Position numbers and translations under genes: made by a program. From IMG/VR virus record IMGVR_UViG_3300037852_000186, positions 1-64,000 of that record: 64,000 bases of DNA; one strand, written 5' to 3'. Every line of letters starts with the position of its first letter. The stretch's first letter is position 1. Positions 41,076 to 64,000 of the stretch are shown piece after piece. This DNA is from a virus. The notes under the pieces are model-generated. The model made no database searches, was not told where the DNA came from, and saw nothing but the letters and a program-made list of their open reading frames with translations.

Positions 41076-41081
41076 TGATAG

Positions 41082-42682: not shown

Positions 42683-42791
42683 AGGCTACTCCTTGGATGC
42701 TTTGCTGAGTATGGTTCGCCGTGTCGCAACCAGCACCACGCATAGGCAGGATGACGTATTGCCCAAGCAATAGTCTGCAACTTCAACTTCA

Positions 42792-43133: not shown

Positions 43134-43145
43134 TAAATCATCTCC

Positions 43146-43858: not shown

Positions 43859-43862
43859 GGCT

Positions 43863-44150: not shown

Positions 44151-44162
44151 CTGACCCGTTAC

Positions 44163-45146: not shown

Positions 45147-45158
45147 AGCAGTAGTTCC

Positions 45159-45356
45159 CTAACTCGGAGTGCCTATTCCTTTGATTTCTGTGATCGCTAC
45201 GTAGCGACCGTATATTGCACCGAGCGCACCAATGAGTGCTGTTATGTTGGCTGGATTCGCCCCGCCGTTAATAAACATATCGCCGACGGCCCCAACGACC
45301 GCGACAATGCCGCAGATGATTGCTTTGCTTGTGTACCAATGCTTATTAGCTGGCAC
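45159..45356 (-). CDS. Small two-TM protein (holin-like)
   Basis: KHWYTSK.I start, two hydrophobic segments, AIYGR. Confidence 0.6.
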   Translation of the reverse strand: MPANKHWYTSKAIICGIVAVVGAVGDMFINGGANPANITALIGALGAIYGRYVAITEIKGIGTPS

Positions 45357-46125: not shown

Positions 46126-46131
46126 CGTGCT

Positions 46132-48714: not shown

Positions 48715-48970
48715 ACTAGCTACTCACCTTTAAATTCTGGTAGAATAGAGAGCGATGGCTATCAGAAAGAACAATGTCCGCGTTAGCTCTCGCCCATTTT
48801 TTTTCGTCGGCTGGCGACTTGACGTTTCCAGGCAATTCACTTACTCGCCTTCATGCTCAGAGGCCGCGTTCATCTTTTTATAGATCAGGTATCCAATTCC
48901 GCAGGACCATCCGCCAATAAAACCGACTGCAAGTCCAAGAATGAATGCGGCGTATACCCAAGAGTCCACG

Positions 48971-49201
48971 CTAGTCGCTCACTCTTTTGACGCTGCCTGG
49001 CTCGCTGTAGCACTTTTCGGTAGCGTGGATCGCTTTCAGCATTTCTAGAAACTCGGGACGAAGTCGCCGTAGAAGTTGTCGCGCGTCGAGTAATTCAGCG
49101 GCTATCGAGTTGACTTGATCGTCATCGGGTCCAGATATGAACGCGGCCGAATTTGGATCGCGCCATACTCGTAACTGGTCATCTGTGGGCCTGTCGATCA
49201 C
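48971..49201 (-). CDS. Hypothetical protein
   Basis: GTGA overlap with the upstream gene. Confidence 0.45.
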   Translation of the reverse strand: MIDRPTDDQLRVWRDPNSAAFISGPDDDQVNSIAAELLDARQLLRRLRPEFLEMLKAIHATEKCYSEPGSVKRVSD

Positions 49202-49791
49202 GCCGCCGCCTTCCCCTGAAACAGCGTCACCATCGCGTTATACATCCGGTCTTGAAAAATCGGCCCAACTTCTTCCATCGCGGGCCGCGCATAGGGGCGT
49301 TCGGGGATGCGAACGGATTTCTTCAGCGCGAACAGCGGCTGGTAACTGCCATCATCGTGTTTACCGAAGATGACGTTTTGTGCGGAGAACGTTCCACTAA
49401 ACCCGTAGCTTTCGGGAGACGAGATGACATCGCGCGCTGTTCCACGTGAAACACCGCGTCCAGTCAGCATCGCGGGCAGCGGAATCGTCAGGTTCGCAAC
49501 GTTCTTCGCGTTGACGGTGCCGCCGAATTCGTGAATCTGGGCGTAGGGTGCCGGCGAGCCGACCTTGCCCTCCATCGCGCCACCAGTCTCAACGACTGGC
49601 TCCATGACGATGTTTTCCAGGAGGCCCGTGCGGCGGGTAAACTGGCGGCTGATGTTCTCCTTCATGGCGCTGCGCAACAGCAACATCGCCGAGTTCAGCT
49701 CGCGACGCATGACGCGGCGCACTTCGGGGCTCGTCACAAAGTGGCCCTTGAGACGACTGCTGGCGACTATGGTGAGTGTCAGGTCTGCCAT
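49198..49791 (-). CDS. Phage virion morphogenesis protein (Mu gpG / HK97 gp10-like)
   Basis: RTG.L, VGS..PYA.IHEFGG, IPERPY.RP. Confidence 0.85.
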   Translation of the reverse strand: MADLTLTIVASSRLKGHFVTSPEVRRVMRRELNSAMLLLRSAMKENISRQFTRRTGLLENIVMEPVVETGGAMEGKVGSPAPYAQIHEFGGTVNAKNVANLTIPLPAMLTGRGVSRGTARDVISSPESYGFSGTFSAQNVIFGKHDDGSYQPLFALKKSVRIPERPYARPAMEEVGPIFQDRMYNAMVTLFQGKAAA

Positions 49792-49945
49792 TAAGTAAGA
49801 TTCATCTGGTTCATTCTTCGGGCGTCCGCACGTCCCTTGAGTCCAGATTCATGTTGAACAGCGAAAACAACACGTGTAAACTGAGCGAACGAAGATTGCA
49901 CATTGTTGATATGTATTGACGAATCGTTATAGCGGGGAGCGAGCT

Positions 49946-50119
49946 ATGCCGAGAGGAGAGGAAGGGCGGTGGCTATCGTTGAAAGAGGCCGCCGTGAAAT
50001 CGGACGTGTCGGTGGGTACGATGCGACGATGGATTAAACGTCAGGAGATTAAGGCGCGGAAGGTGGGCGGACTGTGGCGGATTCGGCCCGAGGATTTGGA
50101 GGCGAAGTGGAGGGAGTGA
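49946..50119 (+). CDS. Excisionase-like helix-turn-helix (HTH_17) protein
   Basis: WLSLKEAA...VS..T.RRWI...I.A.KVG..WRI..EDL; GGGGAG RBS. Confidence 0.85.
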   Translation: MPRGEEGRWLSLKEAAVKSDVSVGTMRRWIKRQEIKARKVGGLWRIRPEDLEAKWRE

Positions 50120-50433
50120 TGAATCCGATGCGAGCAACCGAAGCTGGTAGGGCATCAGACAGACGAGATAACGCACGCCGAAGGGCTGCGTTAAGTTCCG
50201 AACAGGCAACGCTGACAGCCGCCGAATGGACAGACATCCGCGAACGCCACAAATATCGCTGCCATTGGTGTAAGAAAAAGTTCAAACGCCTGACTCAAGA
50301 CCACGTTATCCCTTTGAGTAAAGGAGGGTTGCACGTTAAGGAAAACGTGGTTCCGTCGTGTCTTTCTTGTAATTCTGCGCGAGGTAATCGGCTACTACAC
50401 ATCAAGACTGGTCAATACTTACTCGCAGTCTAG
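50119..50433 (+). CDS. HNH endonuclease
   Basis: TGATG coupling to the HTH gene; CHWC...LT.DHVIPLSKGG.H...N.V.SC..CN. Confidence 0.88.
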   Translation: MNPMRATEAGRASDRRDNARRRAALSSEQATLTAAEWTDIRERHKYRCHWCKKKFKRLTQDHVIPLSKGGLHVKENVVPSCLSCNSARGNRLLHIKTGQYLLAV

Positions 50434-52058
50434 AACGTGCCGTGCTTTGGTAGCCCGTGTCCCCTCCGCCCGCTACTTCCCCACGCCCGTTCGCTGCCAC
50501 GATAGTCTTCCTCTAAGTCGCGCTGGCGCTGGGGATCATAAGCAACGGGGATTTGACTACCGGGGGTGATGTAGGCGTATTCCTGGCGCTGCCCTTGGTA
50601 GCTGGCATAAAGCGCGAGCGCGCCAGCAATCGCTGAGTCACCGTGGCGCATTCCGGCGCCGCTAGTTTCCTTCGACCTTGATTCTGGCACGCGAGCAACG
50701 CCCTTCTCCATGCGCAGCATCCGATGGTCTGCCAGTATATCGGCGTCCTTTGGCAGCGTTATCATGTCGTCCTCGAAGGCCGCCTTGTACTTCGGCATTT
50801 GTTCGCGATACCACTCGATGTTCATAACGACCGGCGTAATCAGCCCTGGCCGCTCCTTCGTACCGCCGTAGCGCAACCCCGCAACCTCTGCGAGAAACGC
50901 GCCGTTGCCCGAGGCGTCCATCGCGCCGCCAATGAAGCGCGTGCCGGCGCGCAGACGGTCTACTATCGTGAACAGAATCTCTTTCTGCTTCTCGTACTCC
51001 ACGTCGCGAAGCTCCACAACGAACGCCGTGCGCCGCTTCGTGTTCTGCTCAATCTGCAATACCCAAATAACCGTTAGGTCTCCGCTGCGACCGAAGTCAA
51101 CACCAAAAATCGACATTTGGTGAGGATGCAAAGTGCGCAGCGCCATATCCAGCCCCGGCCAGATTTGGTCTAACGCTGTGGGGCCTTTGCCGCGAAGTAC
51201 CGGGATGCCCTCGCGCATCTGGCGCTCGATTAGCGCGGCAGAGAGGAAGACACCGCCTGATTCGGATGGGATAACGAGAAGTTCTTCGTCCGCATTCTCT
51301 CGAAAGGTAGCGAACAGCTCCGCACGATACTGTGCTTCATTCTGAGAAGTCGGTTCTTCGTGACGAAGCGGCGCGGCCACACGCTGGTAGTATCCATCGG
51401 CTAAGGCATCGTCAATTGTGACCCTATGCAGCGAGTAGCTGTGCGACATTCGGCCAGCTCGGATATCTGTAACCAAAGTATTAAAAGGCGAGGTCGCGCC
51501 GTTGTGCGTAGAGATGATATGCACATGCCCACCAAGCTGAGTGAAAGCGAGAGCAGCTTTTAGTACGTCAGCTAAGCGGTCGTGAAATGCGGCCTCGTCG
51601 ATAATGACCAGCTCCCCAGGACGGCCCCGCGAACGGATAGAACGTGCGCGAGAAGTTAGACCATAGATTTTGTGCCCCGAAGCAAATTCAACATGGTATG
51701 CGTAGACCGACTCATGCGCCTCGTCGTCCTGCTCCCAAAGTGTCTGCCCAGCTTGGCGTGCCTGCGCGTTTAGAGTAATCGCCCATTCTTTAACGTCGTG
51801 GTCAATCCACGCACGGGCCGCCTCGAAGTTATAAACCATATAGAAAACATCAGCCCCATCTTGACCCGCAGCATTAAGGACTGCCCGCGCCGCTTCTGCC
51901 CAGCTTATTCCCACTCGGCGACTTTTTTCGCAGACAACGATAGGGTGATCGTCAGCAAGGAAGCGCTTCTGATAGTCAAGCAGGATGTTGCCCAAGGATG
52001 GGCTCGGTTGAGGAATAGGCGGTAACTGGACGAGCTTAGGGCTTGGCTTTGGCGGCAT
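50430..52058 (-). CDS. terL: Terminase large subunit (Mu gp28-like)
   Basis: LL.YQ, EKSRRVGISW (Walker A), VIIDEAAFH, ISTHNG, GVDFGRSGDL, MDASG.G, HGD.A.A. Confidence 0.95.
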   Translation of the reverse strand: MPPKPSPKLVQLPPIPQPSPSLGNILLDYQKRFLADDHPIVVCEKSRRVGISWAEAARAVLNAAGQDGADVFYMVYNFEAARAWIDHDVKEWAITLNAQARQAGQTLWEQDDEAHESVYAYHVEFASGHKIYGLTSRARSIRSRGRPGELVIIDEAAFHDRLADVLKAALAFTQLGGHVHIISTHNGATSPFNTLVTDIRAGRMSHSYSLHRVTIDDALADGYYQRVAAPLRHEEPTSQNEAQYRAELFATFRENADEELLVIPSESGGVFLSAALIERQMREGIPVLRGKGPTALDQIWPGLDMALRTLHPHQMSIFGVDFGRSGDLTVIWVLQIEQNTKRRTAFVVELRDVEYEKQKEILFTIVDRLRAGTRFIGGAMDASGNGAFLAEVAGLRYGGTKERPGLITPVVMNIEWYREQMPKYKAAFEDDMITLPKDADILADHRMLRMEKGVARVPESRSKETSGAGMRHGDSAIAGALALYASYQGQRQEYAYITPGSQIPVAYDPQRQRDLEEDYRGSERAWGSSGRRGHGLPKHGTF

Positions 52059-52170
52059 TCTTACGTCCGTTGGCCCGCGCCGTTTCGGCCTTACGCGGCG
52101 ACTTAACCTTCCCGCCGAGCCGCCCGAGGGCGATGGCGGCGGGGTTTTTTAGTTTAGTCGGAGTGGCCAA
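52036..52170 (-). CDS. 44-aa basic peptide (KNPAA.ALGRLGG family), not in the ORF track
   Basis: TTG start; MATPTKLKNPAAIALGRLGGKVKSPRKAETARANGRKNAAKAKP; overlaps the terL start. Confidence 0.55.
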   Translation of the reverse strand: MATPTKLKNPAAIALGRLGGKVKSPRKAETARANGRKNAAKAKP

Positions 52171-52411
52171 TCAATTCACCATCTTCGTCGTATTGATGGA
52201 TATCGCAGCCCGTCCATCCGAGGACTTCTACAATCTCGGGCGTCTCACCTATCGGCGAATTGTTGCACCTCATAACGACAGCCTCGCAACCGCATTTCAT
52301 CGTCGCGTATTGCTCGCCGTCGATGACATCGCGGGAATCGGGAATGCGCCCCGGCGCACTTTCAAAGCACTCTTTGGCTAGTCGATCTTGATCCATGAGC
52401 GCATCGTACAC
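52154..52411 (-). CDS. Hypothetical protein
   Basis: Acidic Cys-containing ORF. Confidence 0.4.
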   Translation of the reverse strand: MYDALMDQDRLAKECFESAPGRIPDSRDVIDGEQYATMKCGCEAVVMRCNNSPIGETPEIVEVLGWTGCDIHQYDEDGELIGHSD

Positions 52412-52575
52412 TCAAGCGCTTGGCATGTCCAGTGGAAGATGGCGTGTTCGATTTACGATCAGAATTGAGCTTGTTCGCGGGCGGGGTCGCGGATGTTAGG
52501 AGTCCGAGTCGTTGCTAGTGCCATCAGCTCGCCTATCGATACCCTTATGTGGATATCGGCATGGCCCCCGCAACG

Positions 52576-52766
52576 CTAAAGATATTCTGCCGCATATCGG
52601 ACCTTCGTAAGTAGTACCTGGCGGATCACGTCTTCAATCTGAAGCTTCGACATTCCATAGTCAGACGCCATTTGTTCCAAGGAATCTCTGCGCATGAATC
52701 GCGCAACGATGCGCGCATTGCGGTCCCGCAGGCGTTGGACCGTATCATCAGTCGTTGTGTTTACCA
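52576..52766 (-). CDS. Small HTH-like protein
   Basis: RN..I......SLE.MA..YGMS...I..VIR; GGGAGG RBS. Confidence 0.55.
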
Positions 52767-53263
52767 TTGCGTCCTCCCAGCAGCTCCGCGCGCTTATCAT
52801 TAATGGTCAGCGGCTCGCGGCGCACTGGCTGAACCTCGATAGAGCGCTCGTCGGTCGGTTGCGCCGCTTGCAATTGATTGAGCAGGGTCTGGCGGAGCAA
52901 CGAGACGAGGTCGGAGGATAGACCAGCTTGGCGTATCGTTTGGCTCGGGGTTTCGGACTCGGAGGGCTTCGTCCAGCCGCACCGCCGTTCGAGAAAGAAA
53001 GCTTTGTCAGGGAATGAACCGGCCAAGGCGTCTTGAACTAAACGGTCTGATACTAGAGATTCAATCTCGGCTTTTCCTTTTTGTAAGGCTTCCGCAAAAT
53101 GCGCATAATCACGTTTCCGTTGATAGAGAGTCGTAAGAGAAATATCAAGCACACTAGCGATTTTCTCTTGGGTCAGCCCCCGCCCAGCAAGCGTCCTTAC
53201 TTGCGCTAGATCGGGGGGTTCCCATCGCGGTCTGCCTCTTGGGCGTTTAACTTCAGTATCCAT
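52748..53263 (-). CDS. Terminase small subunit-like HTH protein
   Basis: GRP, LA..GLT...IA..L.IS..TLY, F.EAL.KGK, FFLERR.GW; upstream of terL. Confidence 0.75.
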   Translation of the reverse strand: MDTEVKRPRGRPRWEPPDLAQVRTLAGRGLTQEKIASVLDISLTTLYQRKRDYAHFAEALQKGKAEIESLVSDRLVQDALAGSFPDKAFFLERRCGWTKPSESETPSQTIRQAGLSSDLVSLLRQTLLNQLQAAQPTDERSIEVQPVRREPLTINDKRAELLGGRNGKHND

Positions 53264-53327
53264 AATAAAAGCCGCCGCCCCTTACCGTAGCACGGGCGCG
53301 GTGTCGGCCCAATAGACAGGTGGGTGG

Positions 53328-53357
53328 TTGACAAACGTCGTCAGTGTGTGCAAGTAT
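53328..53357 (+). promoter_or_regulatory. Possible leaderless promoter for the Arc-like gene
   Basis: TTGACA-18 bp-AAGTAT (TG-extended)-6 bp-ATG 53364. Confidence 0.45.
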
Positions 53358-53363
53358 GCAGTT

Positions 53364-53537
53364 ATGCAAGCACAAAGCATTATGAACGTTCAGATAAGAA
53401 TGTCGCCAGAGCTGCGAGTAGAGCTGGGACAACTTGCACTTTCACGTAACGCCAGCCTAAACGCCACGATTTGTGAACTACTCGAACGGGCCGTTAAGGT
53501 CCTCAACGCTACTAGCCCTCGAAAGGGAACAGAATAA
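53364..53537 (+). CDS. Arc-like ribbon-helix-helix DNA-binding protein
   Basis: VQIRMSPELR..L...A..RN.SLN..I..LLE.A. Confidence 0.8.
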   Translation: MQAQSIMNVQIRMSPELRVELGQLALSRNASLNATICELLERAVKVLNATSPRKGTE

Positions 53538-53831
53538 ATGGCAATACCTTTAGTGCGAGAACAAGCGGGCTCCCTCTACGCCCGATTTCAAAGCAGCATG
53601 AATAATCCAACCCAAGCCTGCCAGCCAGCGAAAGGGAACAGAATGAGAACGACAAAGCCCAAGTTTGAAGTCTATCTCGGCGGCGAATGGTGCCGCACCA
53701 CGCAAGCCACCATTCAGTCTAGCGGCTGGCTCCATTACGAGTTGAGAGATCGAACCATCGGCCTCATGCCGCCTAAGAAGTGGCGCCTTGTCGAAGCCAA
53801 CGCTACTAACCGAACCAAGGAAACCACGTGA
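53538..53831 (+). CDS. Hypothetical protein
   Basis: Follows the Arc-like gene; start uncertain. Confidence 0.45.
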   Translation: MAIPLVREQAGSLYARFQSSMNNPTQACQPAKGNRMRTTKPKFEVYLGGEWCRTTQATIQSSGWLHYELRDRTIGLMPPKKWRLVEANATNRTKETT

Positions 53832-54112
53832 AAACGAATCTGAAACCATGTAGAAAATGCGGCAGAGAAGTCGCGATAGGCGCAACTATTTGCCCCGGTT
53901 GCGGAGTGCTGGGTCCCGCGCCCTGGATGCCCTTCTCACCGTGGTATGCAGTCGGCGGCTTTGTTGTTTTAGTTGTGTCGTTGGCGTCTGTTGGTCGGAT
54001 AAAAACACATTGCGAACTAACCGAAGGCTCAGCAATCACGCTGGGCCTTTTCATTTCCCTTCTGGCACCAGCTTCGCCAGCATCTCACGAATGTGCGCGT
54101 CAATCATCGTAA
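53828..54112 (+). CDS. Zinc-ribbon membrane protein
   Basis: CRKCG..CPGCG plus TM helix; GTGA overlap. Confidence 0.6.
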   Translation: MKTNLKPCRKCGREVAIGATICPGCGVLGPAPWMPFSPWYAVGGFVVLVVSLASVGRIKTHCELTEGSAITLGLFISLLAPASPASHECARQSS

Positions 54113-54260
54113 TCCGAATCCCCGAAGCGTGCAGATACTCGTAGAGGATTAGATGGTGGCAGCGCTCTTCCGGCGTTGAGTCCTCTACGAGCTTACGAAC
54201 GGCATCTTCTATCTTTTTCCGCTTCGCTAGGCGCTTCGCGACAGTGTCTGGCGATACCAT
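54051..54260 (-). CDS. Hypothetical protein
   Basis: TGATG coupling. Confidence 0.45.
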   Translation of the reverse strand: MVSPDTVAKRLAKRKKIEDAVRKLVEDSTPEERCHHLILYEYLHASGIRITMIDAHIREMLAKLVPEGK

Positions 54261-54751
54261 CAGTTCGGCAATTCCTTCTCTGCGTGCGCCGCCATCTCGT
54301 CGCCTGCCCGCAACTCCGCAATCAACTCGTCTTCGCTGGCGTAGGCATGCAAAGCGTGCGAGAAAATGCGGCCCGAGGGATCACGAAAGGCTACCCAAAG
54401 ATCGGCCATCGAAGAGAAGCCGTCGGGCGAAATGCCGATAACGTCGTCGCAGCCGACTGTCCCGTCGTCGTGCTCGGGACAGGGTTCGGTGGTGTGTTCA
54501 ACGCGCCATGCAATGATGCGAACGGAGAAGAGTTGACCGTCGAGCCAGCCGAGATTCCACCAGCCGTGTTCGCGGGGTAGGACGGTTGCGGGTTCTTTCT
54601 TTTTCAAAGCAGTTCTCCTTGTTGCGTTAGTGTCCCATTCCGCGCGATTGCCCGTACTCTCGGCTACGCCCATATTTATAATCATCGTCCTCGAAAGATC
54701 CCACTTTCGGGCTTCCGTCATGCTCGTATGTGGGCGTCGGCGTGAGGCCAA
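54260..54751 (-). CDS. Hypothetical protein (start uncertain, probably near 54630)
   Basis: 5' part overlaps the relaxase. Confidence 0.4.
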   Translation of the reverse strand: MASRRRPHTSMTEARKWDLSRTMIINMGVAESTGNRAEWDTNATRRTALKKKEPATVLPREHGWWNLGWLDGQLFSVRIIAWRVEHTTEPCPEHDDGTVGCDDVIGISPDGFSSMADLWVAFRDPSGRIFSHALHAYASEDELIAELRAGDEMAAHAEKELPN

Positions 54752-55577
54752 TTCCTAGCTGCAAGTCGCGTTCTTTCCATTGCTGTTTAAGATAATTCAT
54801 GTCGAAGGTTCCGCGCGCACGACGGTCAATGACCGATGCTAAGTTCGCCGCGTGTGGATGCCAACCGTGCGCTGAGATAATCTGCTCGATTTGTTCTTTA
54901 CGCTGCGAGAATGCACGGATATGAAGGCGGTCGTATCCAGCTAATTCCCATTCGCCTTTCGCGCTGGTGGTTTTGATGTCGTACCCCAATTGCTTAACGC
55001 GATACTGCATCTCCTCTCGATAGACGTTAGTGCCTTGCTGGCTGTGTCGAAAGATCTGGTATTTGTCGAGCGCTCGCCACTCACCATCCGGACGCTGCGT
55101 CATGTTCATTAGAACAACGTGCGTGTGAACTTGCGGATCGGGCAGTTGCAGACCAACTGGTCGTGCGAGCGTGTGCTGGAAGGATGCTGCCACGAGCTTG
55201 CCAGTAATCGTAGAGTATTGACCGTGATGACTCACCATCGCATAGCGTTCCATGTGGTAGAAGGCTGCTTCTGCTGCGGCAGCATGCGCTGGAATCAGCC
55301 GCTCGTCTCCGCGTACAAGGGCCTGAATCGAAATGGACTTGGGAGCAGAGTACCCTACTTGCCAGCCGGCGCGGTGTTCCGTCCCTTCGCGAGTCGCAAC
55401 AAGCAACCCCCCGAATGGACTATAGCCACGGAGCGCGCAGCCAAAATCAAATCCATTAGCACGCGCGTCGCCGATCAATCCGAGGCTCTCGGCACCATGT
55501 CCAATCCACTGACCGACTTCGTTGATGAAATATCTTTGCGTTCCCGTTGCGGTCAGTGGCACTGGCGAGATCGTCAT
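54627..55577 (-). CDS. trwC: MOB_F (TrwC/TraI-type) relaxase, relaxase domain only
   Basis: G.W.G.GA..LGL.G, SAPKS.S, FQH..AR...DPQVHTH.V..N, DG.WRAL, FSQR..QI; C-terminal RGMG tail. Confidence 0.92.
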   Translation of the reverse strand: MTISPVPLTATGTQRYFINEVGQWIGHGAESLGLIGDARANGFDFGCALRGYSPFGGLLVATREGTEHRAGWQVGYSAPKSISIQALVRGDERLIPAHAAAAEAAFYHMERYAMVSHHGQYSTITGKLVAASFQHTLARPVGLQLPDPQVHTHVVLMNMTQRPDGEWRALDKYQIFRHSQQGTNVYREEMQYRVKQLGYDIKTTSAKGEWELAGYDRLHIRAFSQRKEQIEQIISAHGWHPHAANLASVIDRRARGTFDMNYLKQQWKERDLQLGIGLTPTPTYEHDGSPKVGSFEDDDYKYGRSREYGQSRGMGH

Positions 55578-55595
55578 CAAGTGGGGCAACACCTC

Positions 55596-56183
55596 CTAGA
55601 ATAGAGTGATACGCCTAGAACCTTTCGCGGAATTGCAAGGCCGACAGGCAGCAACCACGTTTTCTTTAACGTGCAAACCACCCTTGCAAAGTGGAATTAC
55701 ATGGTCCATCGTAAGGCGTTTGCATTTTTTCTTGCACCAGTAACAGCGCCCCTTCGCTCGCGATAAAATCGCGCGCCATTCACTCCTAGCTAGAGTGGTT
55801 ACGGGGGTTGCATATTTTCTAGCTCGCCGCCGTTGGTCATCTATTACGCGTTGTTCTTTGTTACGATCCGAACTGCGATAAATCAGAGAGCGTAAGGAAT
55901 GCTTACGCCATGTATTGAAATATAATCGTCGCGGAGCGGTGGCGTTGTAATGTCGACGAGTGGATACGCCTTTTGGTGAAGACCTGTATCGTTTTCTGGT
56001 TAAGACTCCGCGTTGCGATTGACCGTATCGTTGCGCTGCACGAGCCCAGCTTTGCTTAGTCGCGATTATCTTACAGGCTGGACAAAATGCTGGTCTCCTA
56101 AGTCCTTTTGTAATGACGACTGCTGGAGCTTGGCATCGAGGACAATCTCTTAATAGACCTGGAAATATACTTTCACCTGGCAT
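55596..56183 (-). CDS. HNH endonuclease
   Basis: CYWCKKK.KRLT.DHVIPL.KGGLHVKENVV..C..CNS.KG. Confidence 0.88.
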   Translation of the reverse strand: MPGESIFPGLLRDCPRCQAPAVVITKGLRRPAFCPACKIIATKQSWARAAQRYGQSQRGVLTRKRYRSSPKGVSTRRHYNATAPRRLYFNTWRKHSLRSLIYRSSDRNKEQRVIDDQRRRARKYATPVTTLARSEWRAILSRAKGRCYWCKKKCKRLTMDHVIPLCKGGLHVKENVVAACRPCNSAKGSRRITLF

Positions 56184-56189
56184 ATTGTT

Positions 56190-57941
56190 TTATCGAGGCA
56201 AGAACCCCGCGATGTTTTGAATCATATGTGCCTCCTCGATCTTAATTGGCGCGCGGTCACGACCAGCGCAACAGAGATAGCCGTGGAAGCGTTCAAGGAG
56301 AAGCAATTCCGCTGGCGTAACCAAATGACGGCTGAGCCGATGCGGCGCGAGATTCAGCCCTTCCCGATAGTCGCTAACACCCGTGACCATCGTAGTATCG
56401 AAACGATCCGCTTCTTGGCTGTTTAATACTTTGCTCGCCCATTCTGCTGTTTCGGCTCCTCCACATTGCAAGATGACTTTAGTCGCCGCACCGTTGGTGA
56501 GCACGCTTGCTTCATCGCGTCCGTAAATTCGATTAAGCTGGGCGACATCCTGAAAGCCGAGGTATACAGCGATGCCCCTCTTTCGCCCCCGCGCGATAGC
56601 CTTCTCAACATTGCTCTGGTGACCGAGACTCGGAAGTTCGTCGAGCATAACATGAACCCGTTGAGTATAAGTTTCTTGAAACATTAGCCATCTAATCAGT
56701 GTGTCGATCCAAATGGCTTGCAGGGGAAAAAGGGCGTCCTTAGTGTCTTCACTAGAAGTGAGGAAAATCCATCCTTCTGGTTTAGCCGCCCATTCGCGAG
56801 CACTCCACGTGCGCGCGCCTTGTGTCGGTAAATGATAGAACGGTTTGAGTGCGTTCGACGCGGTCGCGACGATTCCAGAACCTTGGTCGTGTGCTTGCGG
56901 ATCGATTAGGTTATACGCAGCATCTGTGAGCACGCCTCGATTGGCTCGAAACTGTTTCTGCATCTCGATACGCGGCATCGCAAGAAATGAGTGCAAGGCT
57001 GGAATGTCCCTCGCTACTGCGAAGATACCTTCAATCAAAGTACGCGCTGATAGACGGAAGAATTCACCTGAGTCGCTAGCAGCTCCTCTCGGATTCGGTC
57101 GAACAAGAGAAGCAGCCATCGCTTGTACATCAACCTCGAACATGGTGGGCCGGAACTCGAACCAAGGCGTCCATCTCAGATCGTAACGCTGGTCGAATGG
57201 ATTGAGAATGATGTCGCTCGGCTTGTAGAACTCTTGAACAAATTCACAATCAGGATCGAAAATAACCGCGATTTCTCCACGCTGCCGAATCTGTCGGAGA
57301 AGATGACGAAGAATAGTAGACTTGCCCATGCCAGATTTGCCAGCGATAAGCATGTGCTCGGTTTCGATGTTAGGTTCTAGGGTGACATCACCGATACGCA
57401 GCCCGGTTGATACGGGCGCCTTGGGTGTGACGTACGGGCGGACTCGCTGCCAGTATGAACGCCATCCGTGTATCCGATAGTTAAGCGCGGACGCTGAAAT
57501 CATTTGAACTCCTCGAATGTGTTGCAGCTCCTTTGCGCTTCGTTGTGCGAAGAGTGCAACTCCAATGATTGCGATTGGCGGTAACAGTGGCCAGCCCCAA
57601 CAAGATTGTACACACCACGCCGGAAAGCTTTGATGATAGCCGGCTGGACCGGATAGCCATGCACTCAACGATCCAAGTTCATACCATTGTCTGTTGAAGG
57701 GGACGGGCGCATTGGTGAGGTATGTACCGACAAATGGAATATTCGCGATCAAGCTGTACGGCGCCCACGACCAGAAATATACATGATGTAACAGTGGATA
57801 AGTTCTTCGCCACACAACGATAAGCGTGCAAACTACCCAAGCCAGCAGCGCACCACGGAAGATTTTGCTCCATATACTGCTGGCCATCCGACCCATAATT
57901 CCGACGGCTTGTAGTCGCGCAATTCCAGCCGAATATGCCAT
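56190..57941 (-). CDS. traD: Type IV coupling protein (TraD/TrwB family)
   Basis: N-terminal TMs, H.RG, Walker A GKSGMGKS, FDP..EF, NPFD.R, Walker B LDELPSL, GRK.G, QL..IYG. Confidence 0.92.
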   Translation of the reverse strand: MAYSAGIARLQAVGIMGRMASSIWSKIFRGALLAWVVCTLIVVWRRTYPLLHHVYFWSWAPYSLIANIPFVGTYLTNAPVPFNRQWYELGSLSAWLSGPAGYHQSFPAWCVQSCWGWPLLPPIAIIGVALFAQRSAKELQHIRGVQMISASALNYRIHGWRSYWQRVRPYVTPKAPVSTGLRIGDVTLEPNIETEHMLIAGKSGMGKSTILRHLLRQIRQRGEIAVIFDPDCEFVQEFYKPSDIILNPFDQRYDLRWTPWFEFRPTMFEVDVQAMAASLVRPNPRGAASDSGEFFRLSARTLIEGIFAVARDIPALHSFLAMPRIEMQKQFRANRGVLTDAAYNLIDPQAHDQGSGIVATASNALKPFYHLPTQGARTWSAREWAAKPEGWIFLTSSEDTKDALFPLQAIWIDTLIRWLMFQETYTQRVHVMLDELPSLGHQSNVEKAIARGRKRGIAVYLGFQDVAQLNRIYGRDEASVLTNGAATKVILQCGGAETAEWASKVLNSQEADRFDTTMVTGVSDYREGLNLAPHRLSRHLVTPAELLLLERFHGYLCCAGRDRAPIKIEEAHMIQNIAGFLPR

Positions 57942-58149
57942 TTATAGTTTCGCCTTTTGTTTGTGAGGGTGGGTTAGACGCGAACGGATTCAGGCATAGT
58001 TCCTTGCCAACATAACGCTCCGTCATTCGCCTAACGAAGAGCTGTTTCGCAAGGACTATGACTGCACATCACCAATACTAATTGCCCCGACGTTAAGGGA
58101 TCTGTAATCGCGCCTTGGGGGAGGGTTTACAAAGTTGGCGCGTACCATT

Positions 58150-58557
58150 TCAGATAACCCCAGCAAAGGCCAAGCACACAATATTGACGAGAAACCAGCC
58201 GACAAAAAAACGAAGCGGCCAGTGTCCCTCGGCTCTGACGACGAGGTCAATTAGCAGTGCGGTAGGAATGATCGCCCAAGGTGGATGAGCCGTGCAAAGC
58301 CAGTACAACCAGACCGCAACCAATAGAATTCTGAGCTTGCCATAGAACGGATTGCCGTAGCGATCTCGGGTTATCCACCATCGTGGGAAGCGGTTTAGGA
58401 AGATGCTTGTCCATGAGTGAGATGCGATTTGGATGGTGGTTTTTCCCCGGTTCGGCAGCTTGTCCTGCTCGTTCCATTCATGGAGGCAGTCAGCCCATCC
58501 CTGCTCGTGACCACGGTAGTAGGATCGTTCGTCGGTATCCGTCCAGCTTGGGTTCAT
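58150..58557 (-). CDS. Hypothetical membrane protein
   Basis: C-terminal TM segments; ATGA overlap. Confidence 0.5.
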   Translation of the reverse strand: MNPSWTDTDERSYYRGHEQGWADCLHEWNEQDKLPNRGKTTIQIASHSWTSIFLNRFPRWWITRDRYGNPFYGKLRILLVAVWLYWLCTAHPPWAIIPTALLIDLVVRAEGHWPLRFFVGWFLVNIVCLAFAGVI

Positions 58558-59102
58558 TCGGGACTCCTAATGTGAGGAATTCGCAGCGCTTCCAAGTAAG
58601 TTTTCATGTAATCGGCGTCACGTTCGCTGAGGATTCGGATAGCTGCTTGAACGGGGCCGCCAAACAAAACAGCGACAACCGCGAGATGCCAGTTCAGGTT
58701 CATCAGGGCCCACAATCCTAAGAGCATGGTGATGCTGATATTGATCTGGGAGAGTTCCCGTTCGCCGCCCATGAGGAGCTTGTCTTTTTGCAGACAGGTA
58801 AAAACCCTATGTCCAGAGCCGCTGTGCCCACTGGTGGAAGGTGATGGCGTGCTGCCGATGGATGTTGCGAGCTTGCCCTTTGGGCGTTGGACGGGTGGTC
58901 CATACTGGCGTTTTTGAACTTGGGACTTTGTAGGTTCTGGAATCAATGCGCCAGTTGGAATGGCTGGTGGAGGACTAACCGCTGGTGCCGGCGCGAGTGG
59001 TCGCGGTCTCCCACCGGAGAGTTCCCAGTTGTCCGCTGGAATGCCATCCCCGCTGCTAGCCCATGCCTGATTTCCTAAGTAATGATCGCCTCTGTCGTAC
59101 AA
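58554..59102 (-). CDS. virB3: VirB3/TrbD-like protein with a Pro-rich N-terminal extension
   Basis: L....LLMGGEREL + two TMs + D..Y...Y; start uncertain. Confidence 0.72.
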   Translation of the reverse strand: MYDRGDHYLGNQAWASSGDGIPADNWELSGGRPRPLAPAPAVSPPPAIPTGALIPEPTKSQVQKRQYGPPVQRPKGKLATSIGSTPSPSTSGHSGSGHRVFTCLQKDKLLMGGERELSQINISITMLLGLWALMNLNWHLAVVAVLFGGPVQAAIRILSERDADYMKTYLEALRIPHIRSPE

Positions 59103-59122
59103 TGAGCGAGTCCCCCTATTTA

Positions 59123-59596
59123 TTAGCTGGCATTACCGATGTTGGCCTTGAGGCGATGATACCGTCGGTTCGCAGCAGCTCTGTGGCAAACGCTGCATCT
59201 TCGGTGTCCCGTTTTTTTGTTGACTATATCGAGCGGATGGCCATGTATGCAGAGGCCATTGCGTATAGGTCTTCGGCCAGCAATTTGTTCTTTCGGTGTT
59301 GCCCACCTACAATTTGACGGTTCATAGTTACCGTTCGGATCTGGATACCGGTCTAACGTCTTGCCTACTGGCCGTTCATTCATATCAGCTAGAAAGTTGG
59401 CAAAGTCGCTCCATCGTTCGCAGATAGTTATGCCCCTCCCTCCATAAAGATCGTAATGGACATGTTTAGGATTGAGACAACGTTCCCGCATGTGAACCCA
59501 GCTTCGATAAGTGGGTGTGTCTGTATGTCGATGTGTGCTACGGCCCATTATTACCCCTATCATGCGGCTTGTGGTTGCCCCCTGCCCGTAAGCCAC
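59123..59596 (-). CDS. HNH-type endonuclease (YGGRGI family)
   Basis: Y.SW..M..RC, YGGRGI.ICERW..F.NFLADM, TLDR...NGNYEP.NCRWAT. Confidence 0.9.
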   Translation of the reverse strand: MAYGQGATTSRMIGVIMGRSTHRHTDTPTYRSWVHMRERCLNPKHVHYDLYGGRGITICERWSDFANFLADMNERPVGKTLDRYPDPNGNYEPSNCRWATPKEQIAGRRPIRNGLCIHGHPLDIVNKKTGHRRCSVCHRAAANRRYHRLKANIGNAS

Positions 59597-61962
59597 ATCT
59601 CAAGAAAATCTCCGCCTTGCTCCAGCAGTTGCCGCGCCGCCTGTACGTCCTGATACCCCGTAGAAGCACAGATTTTCTGCCCAGTCGGCCCTAATGCTAA
59701 GGTGAACATTCGAGACCCGATAGACGACTTAAAGTAGTAATCCTGTCGCGCTACAGCGTTCCCTATACGATTAAGCTCATGATCGTTGAGACCTATCTGG
59801 GTGTAGGCTTCGCGCACATAGGTGCTACTACGCAGGGCCGAATTCGGCAGGAAAATTTGCGCTGGCGCACTCTCCAATAGCAACGGCCCAAAGGGGCTGT
59901 TCACTATTTCCCCGGCCGATTGGGTAGCGCCAACGAAGCCACAATTGCGCTTGCGCATGGTCCGTATGGAGTCGAAGAGCCATTCCGCTGAGACTTCATC
60001 TCCGAGCATGTTCCAGAATTCGTCAGCAAATATCCAAGCAGGGGACACGCCGTCTAATGATGAAACGATCGAGTGCAGGATGAGTTCGGTTGCGGGCGCC
60101 GAAGCCCGCTTACCGAGACCTTGAAGTCCGCGCATCTCGAATACACGGAGTTGAATGTCGGCGTCAGTTTGGGGCTCGCCGTTAAAAATGTGCTTCCAGT
60201 AAGTGGTGTAGTGTCGAAGGATTCGACGGATGCGTTGTTGTTCGCCAGGGATAATCGCGAACAGTCCGCTCATGGTCCGAATGCCTTGACGTTGTGCTTG
60301 GCGAAGTCGAGAGGCGAACTCTTCGGATTGGTATTCGTCGAGTTCAAATTTACCGACACCATAATCTCCCGGCCATCGAGCAAAAAGTCGTTCAAACCAA
60401 CCAAAGAGCCATTCGACGCCGTCTTCCTTGTCGAGCATGGCCAGTGGGCAGAGGGCTGGAGTATTCTGAGCGCCCATATCCCGGTAGTCTATCCCGAGTA
60501 GATGGGATAGCACGAAGGACGAGTAATCGAGGTCGAGCCATGCGATCCTGACTTTGGGTATTCCGAGGTAGGCGCAGACCATAGCGGCGATAAGTGAGCT
60601 TTTGCCACTACCCACGGGGCCCAGGATAAGCTGATTGGCGACTCCACCGATATGAGTTGGGAAATAAAAAGGTTCCGAGCCTGTGCCACCACAAACCAAT
60701 GGCGCTGGCGTTTGTGCAGGCAGCATAGGGCTGTGAATATAGGGAGTTCCTTCCCAATATTTTGCGGGTATCGCCAGGTCTGCGAAGTTCTCACCAGTGA
60801 GCGGAATCTTGTGGCGGTTGGCCTCGTGCTCGTCCGACCTCATCGTCAAATAACCTGGCAAAGTGGTCCTAATTGCTTTGGCCGCGCCGATGGTTTCTGG
60901 GCGACACATGACGCCCTTTCCTTGCAGGAGACCTATGAGGGTGTGCATGCGGTAGTCGGCCTCTGCGGGGTCGCGGTCGCGAACGATAGCAACACATCCT
61001 ACGGTGCCAAAGCTGGTGCCGTCCTTAGAAGCGTTGATAGCTTCTTGGATTTCCGCGATCTGCTCGTAGGCATGCTGAGTGTTTTCTTTCTTGGCGCCAA
61101 AGAAGGACTTGATGATTTCGATGAAGTCGCCGATGGCCGTTTGATTCCAAAACGGTTTTTCTTTTTCAAGCTTCTTTTGGGCATCGTAGGGGCTGAGGCA
61201 GCGGTAACGAATGCTGAGGGTGAGATAACCGGGATGCTGCAAGAGGATAGAGAGCATCTGGGGTAGGGTCTCGCTCGGGTATGCGGTAATGACGATGGGT
61301 CGAAGGTGCCAGCCGTTTATCACGGGATAGAGGCCGTTTACTTGCCATTCGCAGGCGATGGCCTGGTTGAGTCGGACGTGAGGCTCGGGAAGCACAGCGG
61401 GGTAATCGTGGTAGGTGACGAGATGGAGGAGATCGCGGAACATCTCAAGGTTCGACATGGGTTCGAGTCCGACAGCGCCCTTGACTGCGTCCTCGATAGC
61501 CTGAAAGCGGCCGAGCGCGTGCGCGCGAAGCAAGTCGTGGTTGCTCAAGTGCTGCGGCTCGTTTCCCCCGAGGAGGATAGCTCGAACCGTATTCTTGATG
61601 GGCGGCCCGAACTGATGGGAAAGATAGAGACGGGTCGGGGTAATCCAGTGTTCTTCGGCCGCGAACCGCTCGCGGATCTCGGCCATGACAAGCGCGGCGG
61701 CAGGACGCGCGTAGTGTAGGTCGGGCGGCAAGGGTGCTGGCTGACGGTCGAAGACGACTTGAATGGCGTCGCCGGTACGCAAGTGGACTGGTGACCTTCC
61801 GAATTGTTCGGCGCGAGCCAGAAGCTTGGCCGCGTCGTCCGAATCGGGCGATGGGCCGATGAGCCGATAGCCTTTGACGATGCCGTTATCGCGCTCGTCT
61901 ATCACGCCTTCGTGGCCTTTGAGGAATTGACGGTATGGAAGTGAGTCGGCTAGTGTGGCCAT
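59560..61962 (-). CDS. virB4: VirB4/TrbE ATPase
   Basis: L.D.LPY, GP..DS, Walker A GPVGSGKS, ADEFW, T.RK.N....ATQS, IFLPN; GAAGGTGA RBS. Confidence 0.93.
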   Translation of the reverse strand: MATLADSLPYRQFLKGHEGVIDERDNGIVKGYRLIGPSPDSDDAAKLLARAEQFGRSPVHLRTGDAIQVVFDRQPAPLPPDLHYARPAAALVMAEIRERFAAEEHWITPTRLYLSHQFGPPIKNTVRAILLGGNEPQHLSNHDLLRAHALGRFQAIEDAVKGAVGLEPMSNLEMFRDLLHLVTYHDYPAVLPEPHVRLNQAIACEWQVNGLYPVINGWHLRPIVITAYPSETLPQMLSILLQHPGYLTLSIRYRCLSPYDAQKKLEKEKPFWNQTAIGDFIEIIKSFFGAKKENTQHAYEQIAEIQEAINASKDGTSFGTVGCVAIVRDRDPAEADYRMHTLIGLLQGKGVMCRPETIGAAKAIRTTLPGYLTMRSDEHEANRHKIPLTGENFADLAIPAKYWEGTPYIHSPMLPAQTPAPLVCGGTGSEPFYFPTHIGGVANQLILGPVGSGKSSLIAAMVCAYLGIPKVRIAWLDLDYSSFVLSHLLGIDYRDMGAQNTPALCPLAMLDKEDGVEWLFGWFERLFARWPGDYGVGKFELDEYQSEEFASRLRQAQRQGIRTMSGLFAIIPGEQQRIRRILRHYTTYWKHIFNGEPQTDADIQLRVFEMRGLQGLGKRASAPATELILHSIVSSLDGVSPAWIFADEFWNMLGDEVSAEWLFDSIRTMRKRNCGFVGATQSAGEIVNSPFGPLLLESAPAQIFLPNSALRSSTYVREAYTQIGLNDHELNRIGNAVARQDYYFKSSIGSRMFTLALGPTGQKICASTGYQDVQAARQLLEQGGDFLEMWLTGRGQPQAA

Positions 61963-62387
61963 ATTTGAGTCACCTTCCCTGCTACAAGACTGAGCGGTAA
62001 CCAACATAAATACCGACTGTCCCAACTGTCTGGGTCGTTCGTACCCATACCGAGAAACATCTCAGGCGGTACGGTGTAGCTGCCGAATGGGCAGACCCGC
62101 GCGAGTCTGGGCTCCGGGGCGCTATTCGGTATCAGTTTGCCCTCGCGGTACACGCCTTCGGGCGCGAACCGCACGTGATCGCCCGGTAGGGCGAGCGCTC
62201 TTTTAATTGGCATCCGCAGCAGCACGAGGTCGCCATAGCGCACCTTGGCGATTGGCTTGATTCGATAGACGCCGACTGGGGTCGCGCTATCGGAGACGTT
62301 GAACGTAAGGTTCCCCATCAACAGAAGGACTAGGCCGCCAAACAGGACCAGGCGAGTTGGGAACCACTTGAGGAGCGTTGTAAACAT
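61950..62387 (-). CDS. traF: TraF-type S26 conjugative signal peptidase
   Basis: N.S.S.TP.G.Y (Ser), IKR..ALPGD (Lys), SWDSRY. Confidence 0.85.
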   Translation of the reverse strand: MFTTLLKWFPTRLVLFGGLVLLLMGNLTFNVSDSATPVGVYRIKPIAKVRYGDLVLLRMPIKRALALPGDHVRFAPEGVYREGKLIPNSAPEPRLARVCPFGSYTVPPEMFLGMGTNDPDSWDSRYLCWLPLSLVAGKVTQIWPH

Positions 62388-62739
62388 TTGGTTTCTCTTC
62401 CCGGTTGTCAGCGCCGGCCCCGGTACGAATAGCCGTTAGGTAGCGCTGTAGAACCTCATTTGCTGCCTCGATACAGGGCTGGCAGGGGGTTGGCTTCGCC
62501 TTGGGGGTTGGCGTGGCTTGTAGGGGCGTTATCGGCAGTATTTTGGTTAGCGAAGGCGTGGGGATAGGGCTTGGCGCCGCTTGGAAGTGCGTGACTGGCA
62601 CCTCGGGGATCGAGGCGTTGGCGTGCCAGAGATGCGGCCAAATGATGATGCCAAGGAATACGCTAATGATGAAGCCAATCCCGATTTTCGCAAGTCGCCG
62701 ACTAACTTTAGTGCCCGGTGCGTTAGTATTGGTGTTCAT
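62287..62739 (-). CDS. VirB10/TrbI-like N-terminal fragment (TM + Pro-rich linker + helix); no TrbI beta-barrel domain
   Basis: Position after VirB9 and architecture only; 3' end overlaps traF by about 100 nt. Confidence 0.45.
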   Translation of the reverse strand: MNTNTNAPGTKVSRRLAKIGIGFIISVFLGIIIWPHLWHANASIPEVPVTHFQAAPSPIPTPSLTKILPITPLQATPTPKAKPTPCQPCIEAANEVLQRYLTAIRTGAGADNREEKPNVYNAPQVVPNSPGPVWRPSPSVDGEPYVQRLR

Positions 62740-62948
62740 TGCGGCGCCACCGTTGCTAAACACTGAATGTAATAGTTGCCATTCGGCTCCTGCCGAAGTG
62801 TGCCGTAGCCGGATGGGCATTGCGGATAGGTTTGCACTTGTGCCTGCGGGTTGGCTTGGTTGTGGAAAGTCTGGACTTGGGAATATGTTGAGGTCCCTAA
62901 ACCAACCGCGCTAAGCAGCATGCCAAAAATGCTTATGATTGCACTCAC
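62736..62948 (-). CDS. Small exported Gln-rich protein
   Basis: Hydrophobic N-terminus, one Cys pair; GGAGGTGA RBS. Confidence 0.55.
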   Translation of the reverse strand: MSAIISIFGMLLSAVGLGTSTYSQVQTFHNQANPQAQVQTYPQCPSGYGTLRQEPNGNYYIQCLATVAPQ

Positions 62949-62959
62949 CGAATCACCTC

Positions 62960-63652
62960 CTACGGAGCTTGCTGTCCTGCTTTGATAGCCGCATCGCGCG
63001 CCGCCGCCTGCGCCTTAACCAAACCTGGGTAGTAGAATTCGATTGCTTGCGTGAAATTTTTCGTGCCTTTTATTTCCTTCACGGGATTAAATACGTAGTT
63101 ATTGCCAGCAGATGTCTGAATGGCCAAATTTGTAACCATGTCAGGCTCTGCCGGAATTCTGACTGGCGCACCGGGGACCGTGATAGCTGTAGTTGAGGCC
63201 AACGGAAAGACCAGTACGCTATGCTCCCCGACGATAGTGCCCCATCGTTCACGGTCACCGATTTTTACATTGTCCTTCGATGTAGTTTCATCGTCGCGCA
63301 GGCGGATTTGCGTTACGTGTAGCTTTTGGCAATTGAGCGGATATGCAACGTCGGGACTGTAGGGATAGATCACGGTTATCCCGTGCTGTAAAGTTGGGGT
63401 CTGATTGTGCTTGATTGCCTCCGCCACGTCCGACGATAGGGAAGCATACGGATCTGGGATCGGAACCGGCGTAGGCGCCGGCGTCGGGACTATGACTGGT
63501 GCTGGCGGTGGAGTAGCAGCGCACCCGGTAAACAGACCGACTCCTATAACCAACGCAGTAATTCCGAAAAGAAAAACAAGCGCAGCGCAAGCACGTTTGT
63601 TGATCACCGTTGAACCTCCCAAGCGTTCTGCTGTAGGAATTCTTGTTCTCAT
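62960..63652 (-). CDS. virB9: VirB9/TrbG family protein, N-terminal domain only
   Basis: YPY...Y..C....VT.I.L, IGD..RW, TNL.I.T, F.YP; lipobox-like FTGC; ends about 20 aa after FYYP. Confidence 0.78.
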   Translation of the reverse strand: MRTRIPTAERLGGSTVINKRACAALVFLFGITALVIGVGLFTGCAATPPPAPVIVPTPAPTPVPIPDPYASLSSDVAEAIKHNQTPTLQHGITVIYPYSPDVAYPLNCQKLHVTQIRLRDDETTSKDNVKIGDRERWGTIVGEHSVLVFPLASTTAITVPGAPVRIPAEPDMVTNLAIQTSAGNNYVFNPVKEIKGTKNFTQAIEFYYPGLVKAQAAARDAAIKAGQQAP

Positions 63653-64000
63653 TGGTGGACTTCGGCTAAGTCGATTTCGTCGACGAAAAGTCCTAAACTC
63701 TCCGGGTCCTTAGAGCGCGCCACTATCACATGTAAAACCGCGCGCCACTTTTGGGTGGTACGTGCTTGGTCGTTGCGATCGTGCGTGACAGTGTTCCAAT
63801 CGGCCTGGTAGGTGTCTTTTTCTGCTAGTTTGAGGGTGTCAGTGACCGATGTTTCTATCCAACTATAAGGCCCGATAGACTTCGGGTGGTGCTTGCCGCC
63901 ATCGCGGTTGTACCAGCCGTCGAGCTTTTGCGCGGCCTGCCCGGTGACCATCGCTTGGGTTTTGTTGTAGAGGTAGTCTTCCTCGTCGGAGTCGCGGTCA
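63649..64000 (-). CDS. virB8: VirB8/TrbF family protein (5' part outside the window)
   Basis: Frame open to the window edge; TYQ.DW, W.A, terminal LGLFVDEI (NPLG-like). Confidence 0.75.
   Translation of the reverse strand, partial: DRDSDEEDYLYNKTQAMVTGQAAQKLDGWYNRDGGKHHPKSIGPYSWIETSVTDTLKLAEKDTYQADWNTVTHDRNDQARTTQKWRAVLHVIVARSKDPESLGLFVDEIDLAEVHQ

Follow-up and report, generated by a model that had tools for sequence, protein, structure and literature searches.

The window described here is a 64,000-nucleotide stretch of viral DNA that corresponds to bases 1-64000 of one 99,974-bp contig, classed as linear (IMG/VR virus record IMGVR_UViG_3300037852_000186); coordinates greater than 64000 are given in contig numbering. 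Located at 54.6-66.3 kb is an 11.7-kb conjugation operon, which is co-oriented with, and upstream of, the terminase genes terS and terL of a tailed phage. Its members include VirB2-like, VirB5-like, VirB6, VirB8, VirB9, short VirB10-like, TraF, VirB4, and VirB3 proteins, a type IV coupling protein (T4CP), and a TrwC relaxase. All 14 of its open reading frames (ORFs) are intact and open, including those of 821 and 583 residues. An initial annotation, made from the sequence alone, had assigned the relaxase, the T4CP, VirB3, VirB4, VirB8, VirB9, TraF, and both terminase subunits. Searches with Pfam, PHROG, and hidden Markov models (HMMs) built from relatives placed each of these genes where it had been proposed, all co-oriented on the minus strand.

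The operon extends past the right edge of the window, where the remaining virB genes had been expected, and these were indeed found at contig 64400-66289. They encode a VirB2-like protein (contig 65924-66289; a weak pilin match, with a value of 0.008 against the relatives' B2 HMM), a VirB5-like protein (contig 65312-65914; relatives' B5 HMM, 3e-12), and VirB6 (contig 64400-65311; TrbL/VirB6, 1e-9). The following genes are all on the minus strand. VirB8 extends from 63649 to contig 64278 (Pfam VirB8, 6e-7; relatives' HMM, 1e-35). It is followed by a short VirB9 lipoprotein consisting of the N-terminal domain only (62960-63652; CagX positions 4-108 of 198), the short VirB10-like protein (62287-62820), TraF, an S26-type peptidase of pilin maturation (61950-62387; Peptidase_S26, 1e-11), and the VirB4 ATPase of 821 residues (59560-62025). 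Next are a Cys/His-rich ORF of 157 residues (59123-59596), lying between VirB4 and VirB3 and judged by eye to be a putative nuclease, and a long-form VirB3 of 182 residues (58554-59102; Pfam VirB3, 9e-5; relatives' HMM, 3e-11). A membrane ORF of 135 residues (58150-58557) occupies the slot that in relatives holds ribbon-helix-helix (RHH)/NikA-like genes; neither it nor the 157-residue ORF has a Pfam match. The T4CP is of the TrwB/VirD4 type and 583 residues in length (56190-57941; TrwB_AAD_bind, 2e-75; TraG-D_C, 2e-19). Between it and the relaxase lies a phage-type HNH endonuclease, referred to as HNH2 (55596-56183; Pfam HNH_5/HNH). The relaxase itself contains 321 residues and consists of a TrwC (MOBF) nickase domain only (54627-55592; Pfam TrwC, 5e-57). 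Pfam cut-offs were passed by VirB8, VirB9/CagX, S26/TraF, and VirB6. The Pfam matches to VirB3 and VirB4 are weak (for VirB4, CagE_TrbE_VirB at 8.5e-4, below cut-off), but HMMs or alignments from relatives identify both clearly. Indeed, VirB4 is 41% identical over 800 residues to that of L003, a Binataceae metagenome-assembled genome (MAG; DATKML010000044.1), and 61% identical to that of L170, a plasmid-like metagenomic contig (Ga0185299_10001721).

The distance from the relaxase stop codon to the terS start is 1,364 bp, in keeping with the 1.4 kb first estimated. This gap contains an antisense cassette (53328-54112, plus strand) of three ORFs with overlapping stop and start codons, which encode an RHH-like protein of 69 residues, a 97-residue protein of unknown function, and a zinc-ribbon/transmembrane protein of 94 residues with weak zinc-ribbon Pfam matches. 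A 32-nt direct repeat occurs in the gap in three copies, at 53504, 53613, and 53798.

The remainder of the contig is that of a phage. Nearly all of the contig's genes are carried on the minus strand, and when they are followed as transcribed, with falling coordinates, the order is MuF with its intein, integrase, recombination and replication genes, conjugation operon, terS-terL, head, and contractile tail. The MuF-type head protein with the intein is encoded at contig 97318-98769. A search for an integrase to the right of the window, as had been recommended, yielded one, a tyrosine integrase at contig 90872-92020 (integrase match, 3e-20). Contig 67.7-89.9 kb encodes an exonuclease, RecT, a RecD-like helicase (contig 85209-86924), an ERCC4 nuclease, a primase-helicase-like protein, ThyX, and PrimPol (contig 67679-68548; Pfam, 4e-21). 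The small terminase, terS, is located at 52748-53263 (minus strand; phrog_309, 2.7e-17), and terL, a Mu gp28-type large terminase, at 50430-52058 (minus strand; phrog_2, 2e-30; 45% identical to BcepMu gp28). A gpG/gp10-like protein, Mu protease I, a decoration protein, the Mu gpT capsid, an adaptor, a Gp37-like protein, and the sheath are encoded at 33559-49791, also on the minus strand. The left flank, in the order terS-terL-[portal]-protease-decoration-capsid-adaptor-Gp37-sheath-tube, is collinear with that of phages L062, L066, and L071, at 45-60% amino acid identity. With terminase, capsid, protease, sheath, tape measure, and baseplate all present, the phage belongs to the Caudoviricetes with a Mu-type head and a contractile tail. 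CheckV estimates a completeness of 100% for the 99,974-bp contig, and no tRNA genes were detected on it.

Several lines of evidence indicate that the operon and the phage constitute one element. First, phage genes flank the operon on both sides, those on the right being phage-type genes of recombination, replication, and nucleotide metabolism. The contig has a single tyrosine integrase, separated from the operon by 25 kb that include phage genes, and no serine recombinase is found on it. A self-BLAST comparison revealed no att-like direct repeat of at least 17 nt anywhere on the contig. The initial remark that neither an integrase nor att-like repeats mark the junction thus holds, and the transfer genes are not bounded by a recombinase and att sites of their own, as are those of an integrative and conjugative element (ICE). 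Att sites, or relatives displaying an ICE inserted beside a prophage, had been named as signs of two elements; there are no att repeats, and the relatives' modules have no phage genes nearby. Homology to conjugative elements is confined to the 11.7-kb tra operon. Second, the GC content of the operon is 54.0%, and that of all five parts of the contig is 53-55%, compared with 58-64% for the relatives' modules. The tetranucleotide composition is uniform. Third, the closest kin of HNH2 is HNH1, the terminase-adjacent HNH endonuclease (50074-50433, plus strand; Pfam HNH, 5e-11). The two are 55% identical over 92 residues, with 73% nucleotide identity over 136 nt, and form the only paralogue pair with one member in the operon and the other elsewhere on the contig. 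HNH2 is absent at its position in all relatives, where the T4CP and relaxase genes abut or overlap, and the 157-residue ORF is absent between VirB4 and VirB3 in L170. Note that a zinc-ribbon pair, at 32317 and 53828, had been put forward as a second paralogue bridge alongside the HNH genes; it amounts to 33% identity over 39 residues, mostly CxxC, and does not stand. Finally, an exact-sequence look-up located proteins identical to terS, terL, and the T4CP each on a 10,278-bp Logan contig. This length is enough to span 50.4-57.9 kb and suggests that the junction is reproduced by an independent assembly. On the basis of the phage flanks, the lone integrase and lack of att repeats, the tra-only homology, the phage-like GC content, the two inserted ORFs, and the Logan contig, we consider it likely that this is one element in which the operon has long been resident.

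The linkage of the two gene sets is unique in the data that could be reached. No terminase, capsid, or tail genes lie within 10 kb of 58 module loci in GTDB genomes, which often contain several loci each, and phage genes are likewise missing from 80 metagenome module loci totaling 631 kb. Conversely, conjugation genes are absent within 10 kb of terL in the best 80 of 583 IMG/VR terL relatives. The initial annotation had called for relatives with the same terminase-relaxase linkage, and none came to light among these ~140 conjugation loci and 80 phages. A tblastn search of 50,697 GenBank phage records gave no T4CP homologue, and a single-protein search of IMG/VR gave no close terL relatives. 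Scans of IMG/VR with the T4CP, a T4CP alignment, and a VirB4 alignment yielded no sibling phage with the module, although short-pattern scans of this type can miss relatives. The closest homologues of the T4CP (at most 45% identical) occur in Candidatus Binataceae and "delta proteobacterium" MAGs, and those of terL (50-54%) in Binataceae MAGs. As judged from these matches, both halves of the element lead to one host lineage, probably that of an uncultured Binataceae-like bacterium.

The channel-forming half of the operon is that of a VirB/D4-type (MPF-T-like) type IV secretion system (T4SS), in that VirB4, the T4CP, VirB3, VirB6, VirB8, and a VirB5-like protein are present together with the weakly matching VirB2 pilin. 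The Walker A and B motifs are invariant in VirB4. Two of the channel components are short. VirB9 spans positions 13-197 of 298 in the relatives' HMM, such that the C-terminal third is absent. The VirB10-like protein combines a transmembrane segment with a Pro-rich stalk and a conserved Cys motif, and no match to the TrbI (VirB10) domain was observed in any of the six frames. A search for VirB11 with PF00437 gave only the P-loop match inside the T4CP. By comparison, a typical relative such as L003 has genes for VirB11, VirB2-VirB6, VirB8, full-length VirB9, TrbI-domain VirB10, TraF, two RHH/NikA-like proteins, the T4CP, and the relaxase.

It was considered that the short VirB9, the missing TrbI domain and VirB11, and the TraF-VirB4-VirB3 order might represent decay or rearrangement specific to the phage. 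This idea was dropped, given that L170, L183, and L190 display all of these features too. The TraF-VirB4-VirB3 order is common to L170, L183, L185, L188, L190, and L199, and a VirB9 of ~220 residues with a VirB10-like protein of ~170 residues is common to L170, L183, and L190. VirB9 and VirB10 are full-length in L188 and L199, and L185, L188, and L199 match the phage operon in gene order only. VirB11 is also absent in the available stretches of all six. VirB3 measures 180-205 residues in this subfamily, and in L170 the VirB4 and VirB3 genes overlap with no intervening gene. The short VirB10-like orthologues (window 62287-62820; L170 2370-2873; L183 5502-6032; L190 2920-3444) share a PCQxCIE...RY...AI.xG motif, of which PCQxCIE is invariant across the four elements. 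When 1.84 billion representatives were searched with a profile of this protein, 22 clusters at 50% identity were obtained, all of 102-185 residues and none a full-length VirB10. In the elements examined, the short VirB10-like protein is always paired with a VirB9 lacking the C-terminal domain. The short VirB9 and VirB10 and the missing VirB11 are thus a conserved trait of a subfamily rather than decay, and the phage carries the full channel gene set of a naturally occurring T4SS without the outer-membrane O-layer domains and without VirB11. The pairing suggests a minimal T4SS core, hitherto undescribed, in a diderm lineage. The channel proteins of the phage are 61-76% identical to those of L170 (65% for the short VirB10-like protein and 74% for TraF), with ratios of nonsynonymous to synonymous substitution (dN/dS) of 0.08-0.24 and dS saturated. 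By this measure, purifying selection has acted on the channel half.

The explanation that we favor, with somewhat better than even confidence, is that of a temperate, contractile-tailed phage of at least 100 kb with a Mu-type head, in which a transfer operon derived from a plasmid or ICE is part of the phage's own genome. The operon would have been acquired from a conjugative plasmid or an ICE belonging to the same host lineage and kept between the replication and recombination genes and terS-terL. In lysogens, a T4SS would be built from it, and the nickase and T4CP would present phage DNA either to this T4SS or to the complete channels of related ICEs, which are common in these hosts. The helicase-less relaxase would need a helicase from another source, and one might be supplied in trans, for example by the phage RecD-like gene or by the host. 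The prophage would then move by cell contact besides virions.

The nickase and the T4CP retain key features of their families. The relaxase aligns to TrwC residues 31-291 (PDB 1OMH), with a value of 7e-39 to PDB 2CDM/1OMH. It displays the HUH nickase fold: the H...HxH histidine triad is kept, and a tyrosine aligns with the first catalytic motif. The T4CP keeps Walker A, Walker B, and every column that is invariant in the family. Other features, on the other hand, weigh against the explanation just given. In ~30 relatives the relaxase is typically 900-940 residues long and contains a helicase domain. No helicase remnant follows the 321-residue phage relaxase, and there is no SF1B helicase domain. 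A 14-residue deletion has removed the second tyrosine motif (DDYY). The column equivalent to TrwC Asp85 is aspartate in at least 90% of the relatives and glutamine in the phage protein. In TrwC, catalytic roles are attributed to Tyr18, Tyr26, and Asp85; their counterparts in the phage protein are presumptive. Identity of the T4CP to each of its relatives is 40-46%, compared with 51-80% among the relatives themselves. The protein thus lies on a long, phage-specific branch, which could reflect relaxed constraint. The T4CP and relaxase of the phage are only ~41% identical to those of L170. In relatives, NikA/RHH-like genes for relaxosome accessory proteins are present at the slot of the 135-residue membrane ORF; no match to a NikA-like protein was obtained anywhere on the contig. 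Nor was the conserved oriT-like motif of the relatives, a hairpin followed by GCATACAC, found on the contig, although this is the motif of the relatives, and that recognized by the phage relaxase may differ. As judged from these comparisons, the DNA-processing half is remodeled in the phage, with a nickase-only relaxase, no accessory protein, a long-branch T4CP, and two phage-type insertions in the operon. It is only from its conservation that an O-layer-less T4SS is predicted to function in a diderm cell. No sibling phage with the module came to light, such that the dN/dS values refer to the comparison with L170 and not to a phage lineage.

The portal is also of concern. In 70 of the 80 related phages a Mu-type portal gene directly follows terL, and yet the whole contig gave no hit when searched for PF06074, PF04860, BcepMu gp29, and the portals of its closest relatives. 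The portal/MuF slot of the relatives, here window 48714-50433, is occupied by an antisense helix-turn-helix (HTH) gene (49916-50119) and the adjacent HNH1. The missing portal weakens the claim that virions continue to be produced, and the element may be incomplete or defective. The contig ends are assembly breaks, and the linear contig is probably incomplete. Since MuF has been relocated to the opposite extremity, a portal gene may be situated outside the assembled sequence there.

The initial annotation had envisaged a single element that spreads both by particle and by cell contact. The single element is borne out by the flanks, the integrase and att evidence, the composition, HNH2, and the Logan contig. 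The dual mode of spread is not shown, and the helicase-less relaxase, the lost tyrosine motif and aspartate, the failure to find an accessory gene or an oriT, the long-branch T4CP, and the missing portal all speak against it. Contact-dependent transfer or mobilization is accordingly a tentative proposal, and on balance a doubtful one. We regard it as unlikely that the element is fully dual, that is, that the minimized T4SS, T4CP, and helicase-less nickase conjugate from lysogens while infectious virions are still made.

Two features of the relatives are worth recording. In one relaxase subclade, an oriT-like motif is located upstream of the RHH/T4CP genes and consists of a hairpin, TGACGTGC-loop-GCACG, with a variable loop, a T-run, and GCATACACnnCACgTATCCC. 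It is found in L003 at 9460-9510 and also in L043, L056, L145, L147, L149, L152, L153, and L162. The relaxase of the ICE-like element in L003 (11821-13626) is a 601-residue fusion of a TrwC nickase (7e-79) to a Phage_integrase domain (6e-29), which replaces the usual helicase.

The features listed above could also be read as those of a relic. According to this explanation, the operon was captured by illegitimate recombination, is being lost, and has ceased to transfer DNA; the entire element could be a defective prophage. The truncated relaxase with its lost catalytic-site residues, the failure to find either an oriT or an accessory gene, the long branch of the T4CP, the endonuclease genes inserted into the operon, and the contig without a portal would all be expected. 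A decaying operon is difficult to reconcile, however, with 14 open ORFs and intact ATPase motifs, or with channel genes that remain 61-76% identical to those of a plasmid at such low dN/dS values. In addition, the phage-matched GC content implies a long residence without ORF decay. We consider a relic rather unlikely.

A second alternative is that the T4SS has been repurposed. The channel might serve for adhesion via its pilus, for protein delivery, or for DNA release or uptake, and the nickase might function in replication that feeds the adjacent terminase, for example by initiating rolling circles. Conservation of the channel half alongside divergence of the DNA-processing half would be consistent with such a role, as would the short distance between the nickase gene and terS. 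There is also a precedent in the Bacillus phage 0305phi8-36, which has a DNA-translocation operon for a relaxase, a VirD4-like ATPase, and a VirB6-like protein; this operon can be dispensed with in the laboratory, and its role is not known (Pathria et al. 2012, PMC3357382). As in the present case, a tailed phage encodes these three types of protein, but its relaxase is MobC-like, its host is monoderm, and it has no VirB4/B8/B9 channel set. Set against repurposing are the retention of an intact T4CP, which is a receptor for DNA substrates, and the lack of any identified effector candidates; the idea is, moreover, inferred only. In our view it has a small chance of being correct.

The third alternative, namely two adjacent or nested elements in which an independent ICE or integrated plasmid lies in or beside a prophage, derives its appeal from the frequency of such composites. 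A total of 612 phage-ICE tandems, including nested ICE::Phage arrangements, have been curated, and the authors stress interacting separate elements "rather than a hybrid element" (Huang et al., Sci Adv 2026, PMC13651849). As in those tandems, a physical linkage exists here between phage genes and genes of conjugation (relaxase, VirD4, VirB4), with the potential for co-transfer. Furthermore, related operons reside on elements that are ICE-like and chromosomal or else plasmid-like, and the integrase, PrimPol, and ImmA-like regulator of the contig could belong to an ICE. The published tandems, however, are pairs of elements, each with an integrase and att sites. The present operon is bare tra, with neither a recombinase nor att sites of its own, with the composition of the phage, and with a phage HNH paralogue inside it. 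Only one integrase exists, and between it and the operon are phage-type RecT, exonuclease, ERCC4, primase-helicase, and ThyX genes; ICE or plasmid homology does not extend beyond the tra operon. Two elements are thus quite improbable. An assembly chimera, in which a phage contig was wrongly joined to that of a conjugative element, is suggested only by the dependence on a single metagenomic assembly without a sibling. It would need two false junctions, conflicts with the Logan contig, the uniform GC and tetranucleotide composition, and the HNH paralogues that tie both sides, and is most improbable. Even when pooled, separate elements and artefact account for little of the probability that we assign, and a part of the total is left unassigned.

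Comparison with other known systems places the operon further. The Trw system of plasmid R388 (IncW) shares with it the TrwC domain, TrwB_AAD_bind, and genes of the VirB2-VirB10 type. Unlike Trw, the phage operon is without the helicase domain, the second tyrosine motif, Asp85, the O-layer domains of VirB9 and VirB10, and VirB11. It has the TraF-VirB4-VirB3 order, and its carrier is a phage rather than a plasmid. L170, together with L183 and L190, has in common with the phage operon the gene order, the short VirB9, and the short VirB10-like Cys-motif protein, and its channel proteins are those compared above. L170 differs in having RepA, ParA, and NikA-like genes, as well as TnpB, a full TrwC relaxase-helicase of 960 residues, and no phage genes. 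A conjugative phage-plasmid named p1002-1, a recent fusion of two recognizable E. coli plasmids with a plasmid lifestyle (SegMantX preprint, 10.1101/2025.03.14.643293), likewise combines phage and conjugation genes in one replicon. In contrast, an integrase is encoded by the element described here, its operon is old and diverged, and RepA (RPA), ParA, and ParB were not found on the contig, where other Rep families were not searched for. As to circularity, for which the initial annotation had suggested looking, the contig has neither direct nor inverted terminal repeats. The element is distinct from the published cases in that an old and diverged, diderm VirB-type operon without boundaries resides in a myophage with a Mu-type head.

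Some additional characteristics of the phage genome were observed. The virion region is much larger than in related phages of 30-40 kb and contains internal paralogue pairs (3189-6578 and 12113-15814; 16086-16916 and 45346-46125; 24742-25104 and 43863-44150). Among these paralogues are two giant ORFs of 1129 and 1233 residues without a Pfam or PHROG match. Endonucleases of the HNH type, or resembling it, are encoded by at least eight genes dispersed over the genome, some of them between essential genes. The eight are located in the window at 1381-2043, 24105-24692, 50074-50433, and 55596-56183, and in the contig at 76406-76936, 93986-94306, 98816-99247, and 99591-99935. Four have a Pfam HNH/HNH_5 match or are paralogous to such genes, two match HNH_3, and the others were recognized by eye. 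A possible transposon, a block of 4 kb, lies between the arms of a 27-nt inverted repeat (96% match) at contig 68590-68615 and 72599-72625. It encodes an IS1-like DDE transposase along with a regulator of the HTH-M78 (ImmA/IrrE-like) type and a 357-residue ORF. Two "delta proteobacterium" MAGs (L013 and L053) contain copies of this transposase with 65-67% identity.

The case is a lead, not a demonstration, as it rests on one incomplete metagenomic contig without a sibling. Phages and conjugative elements are usually treated as two separate routes of gene transfer. An operon without boundaries of its own and with the composition of the phage is a candidate for a true fusion of the two, or for a T4SS that has been put to another use. 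In either event, a conserved subfamily of diderm T4SSs without the VirB9/VirB10 outer-membrane cap and without VirB11 bears on the question of what constitutes a minimal working T4SS in a diderm cell.

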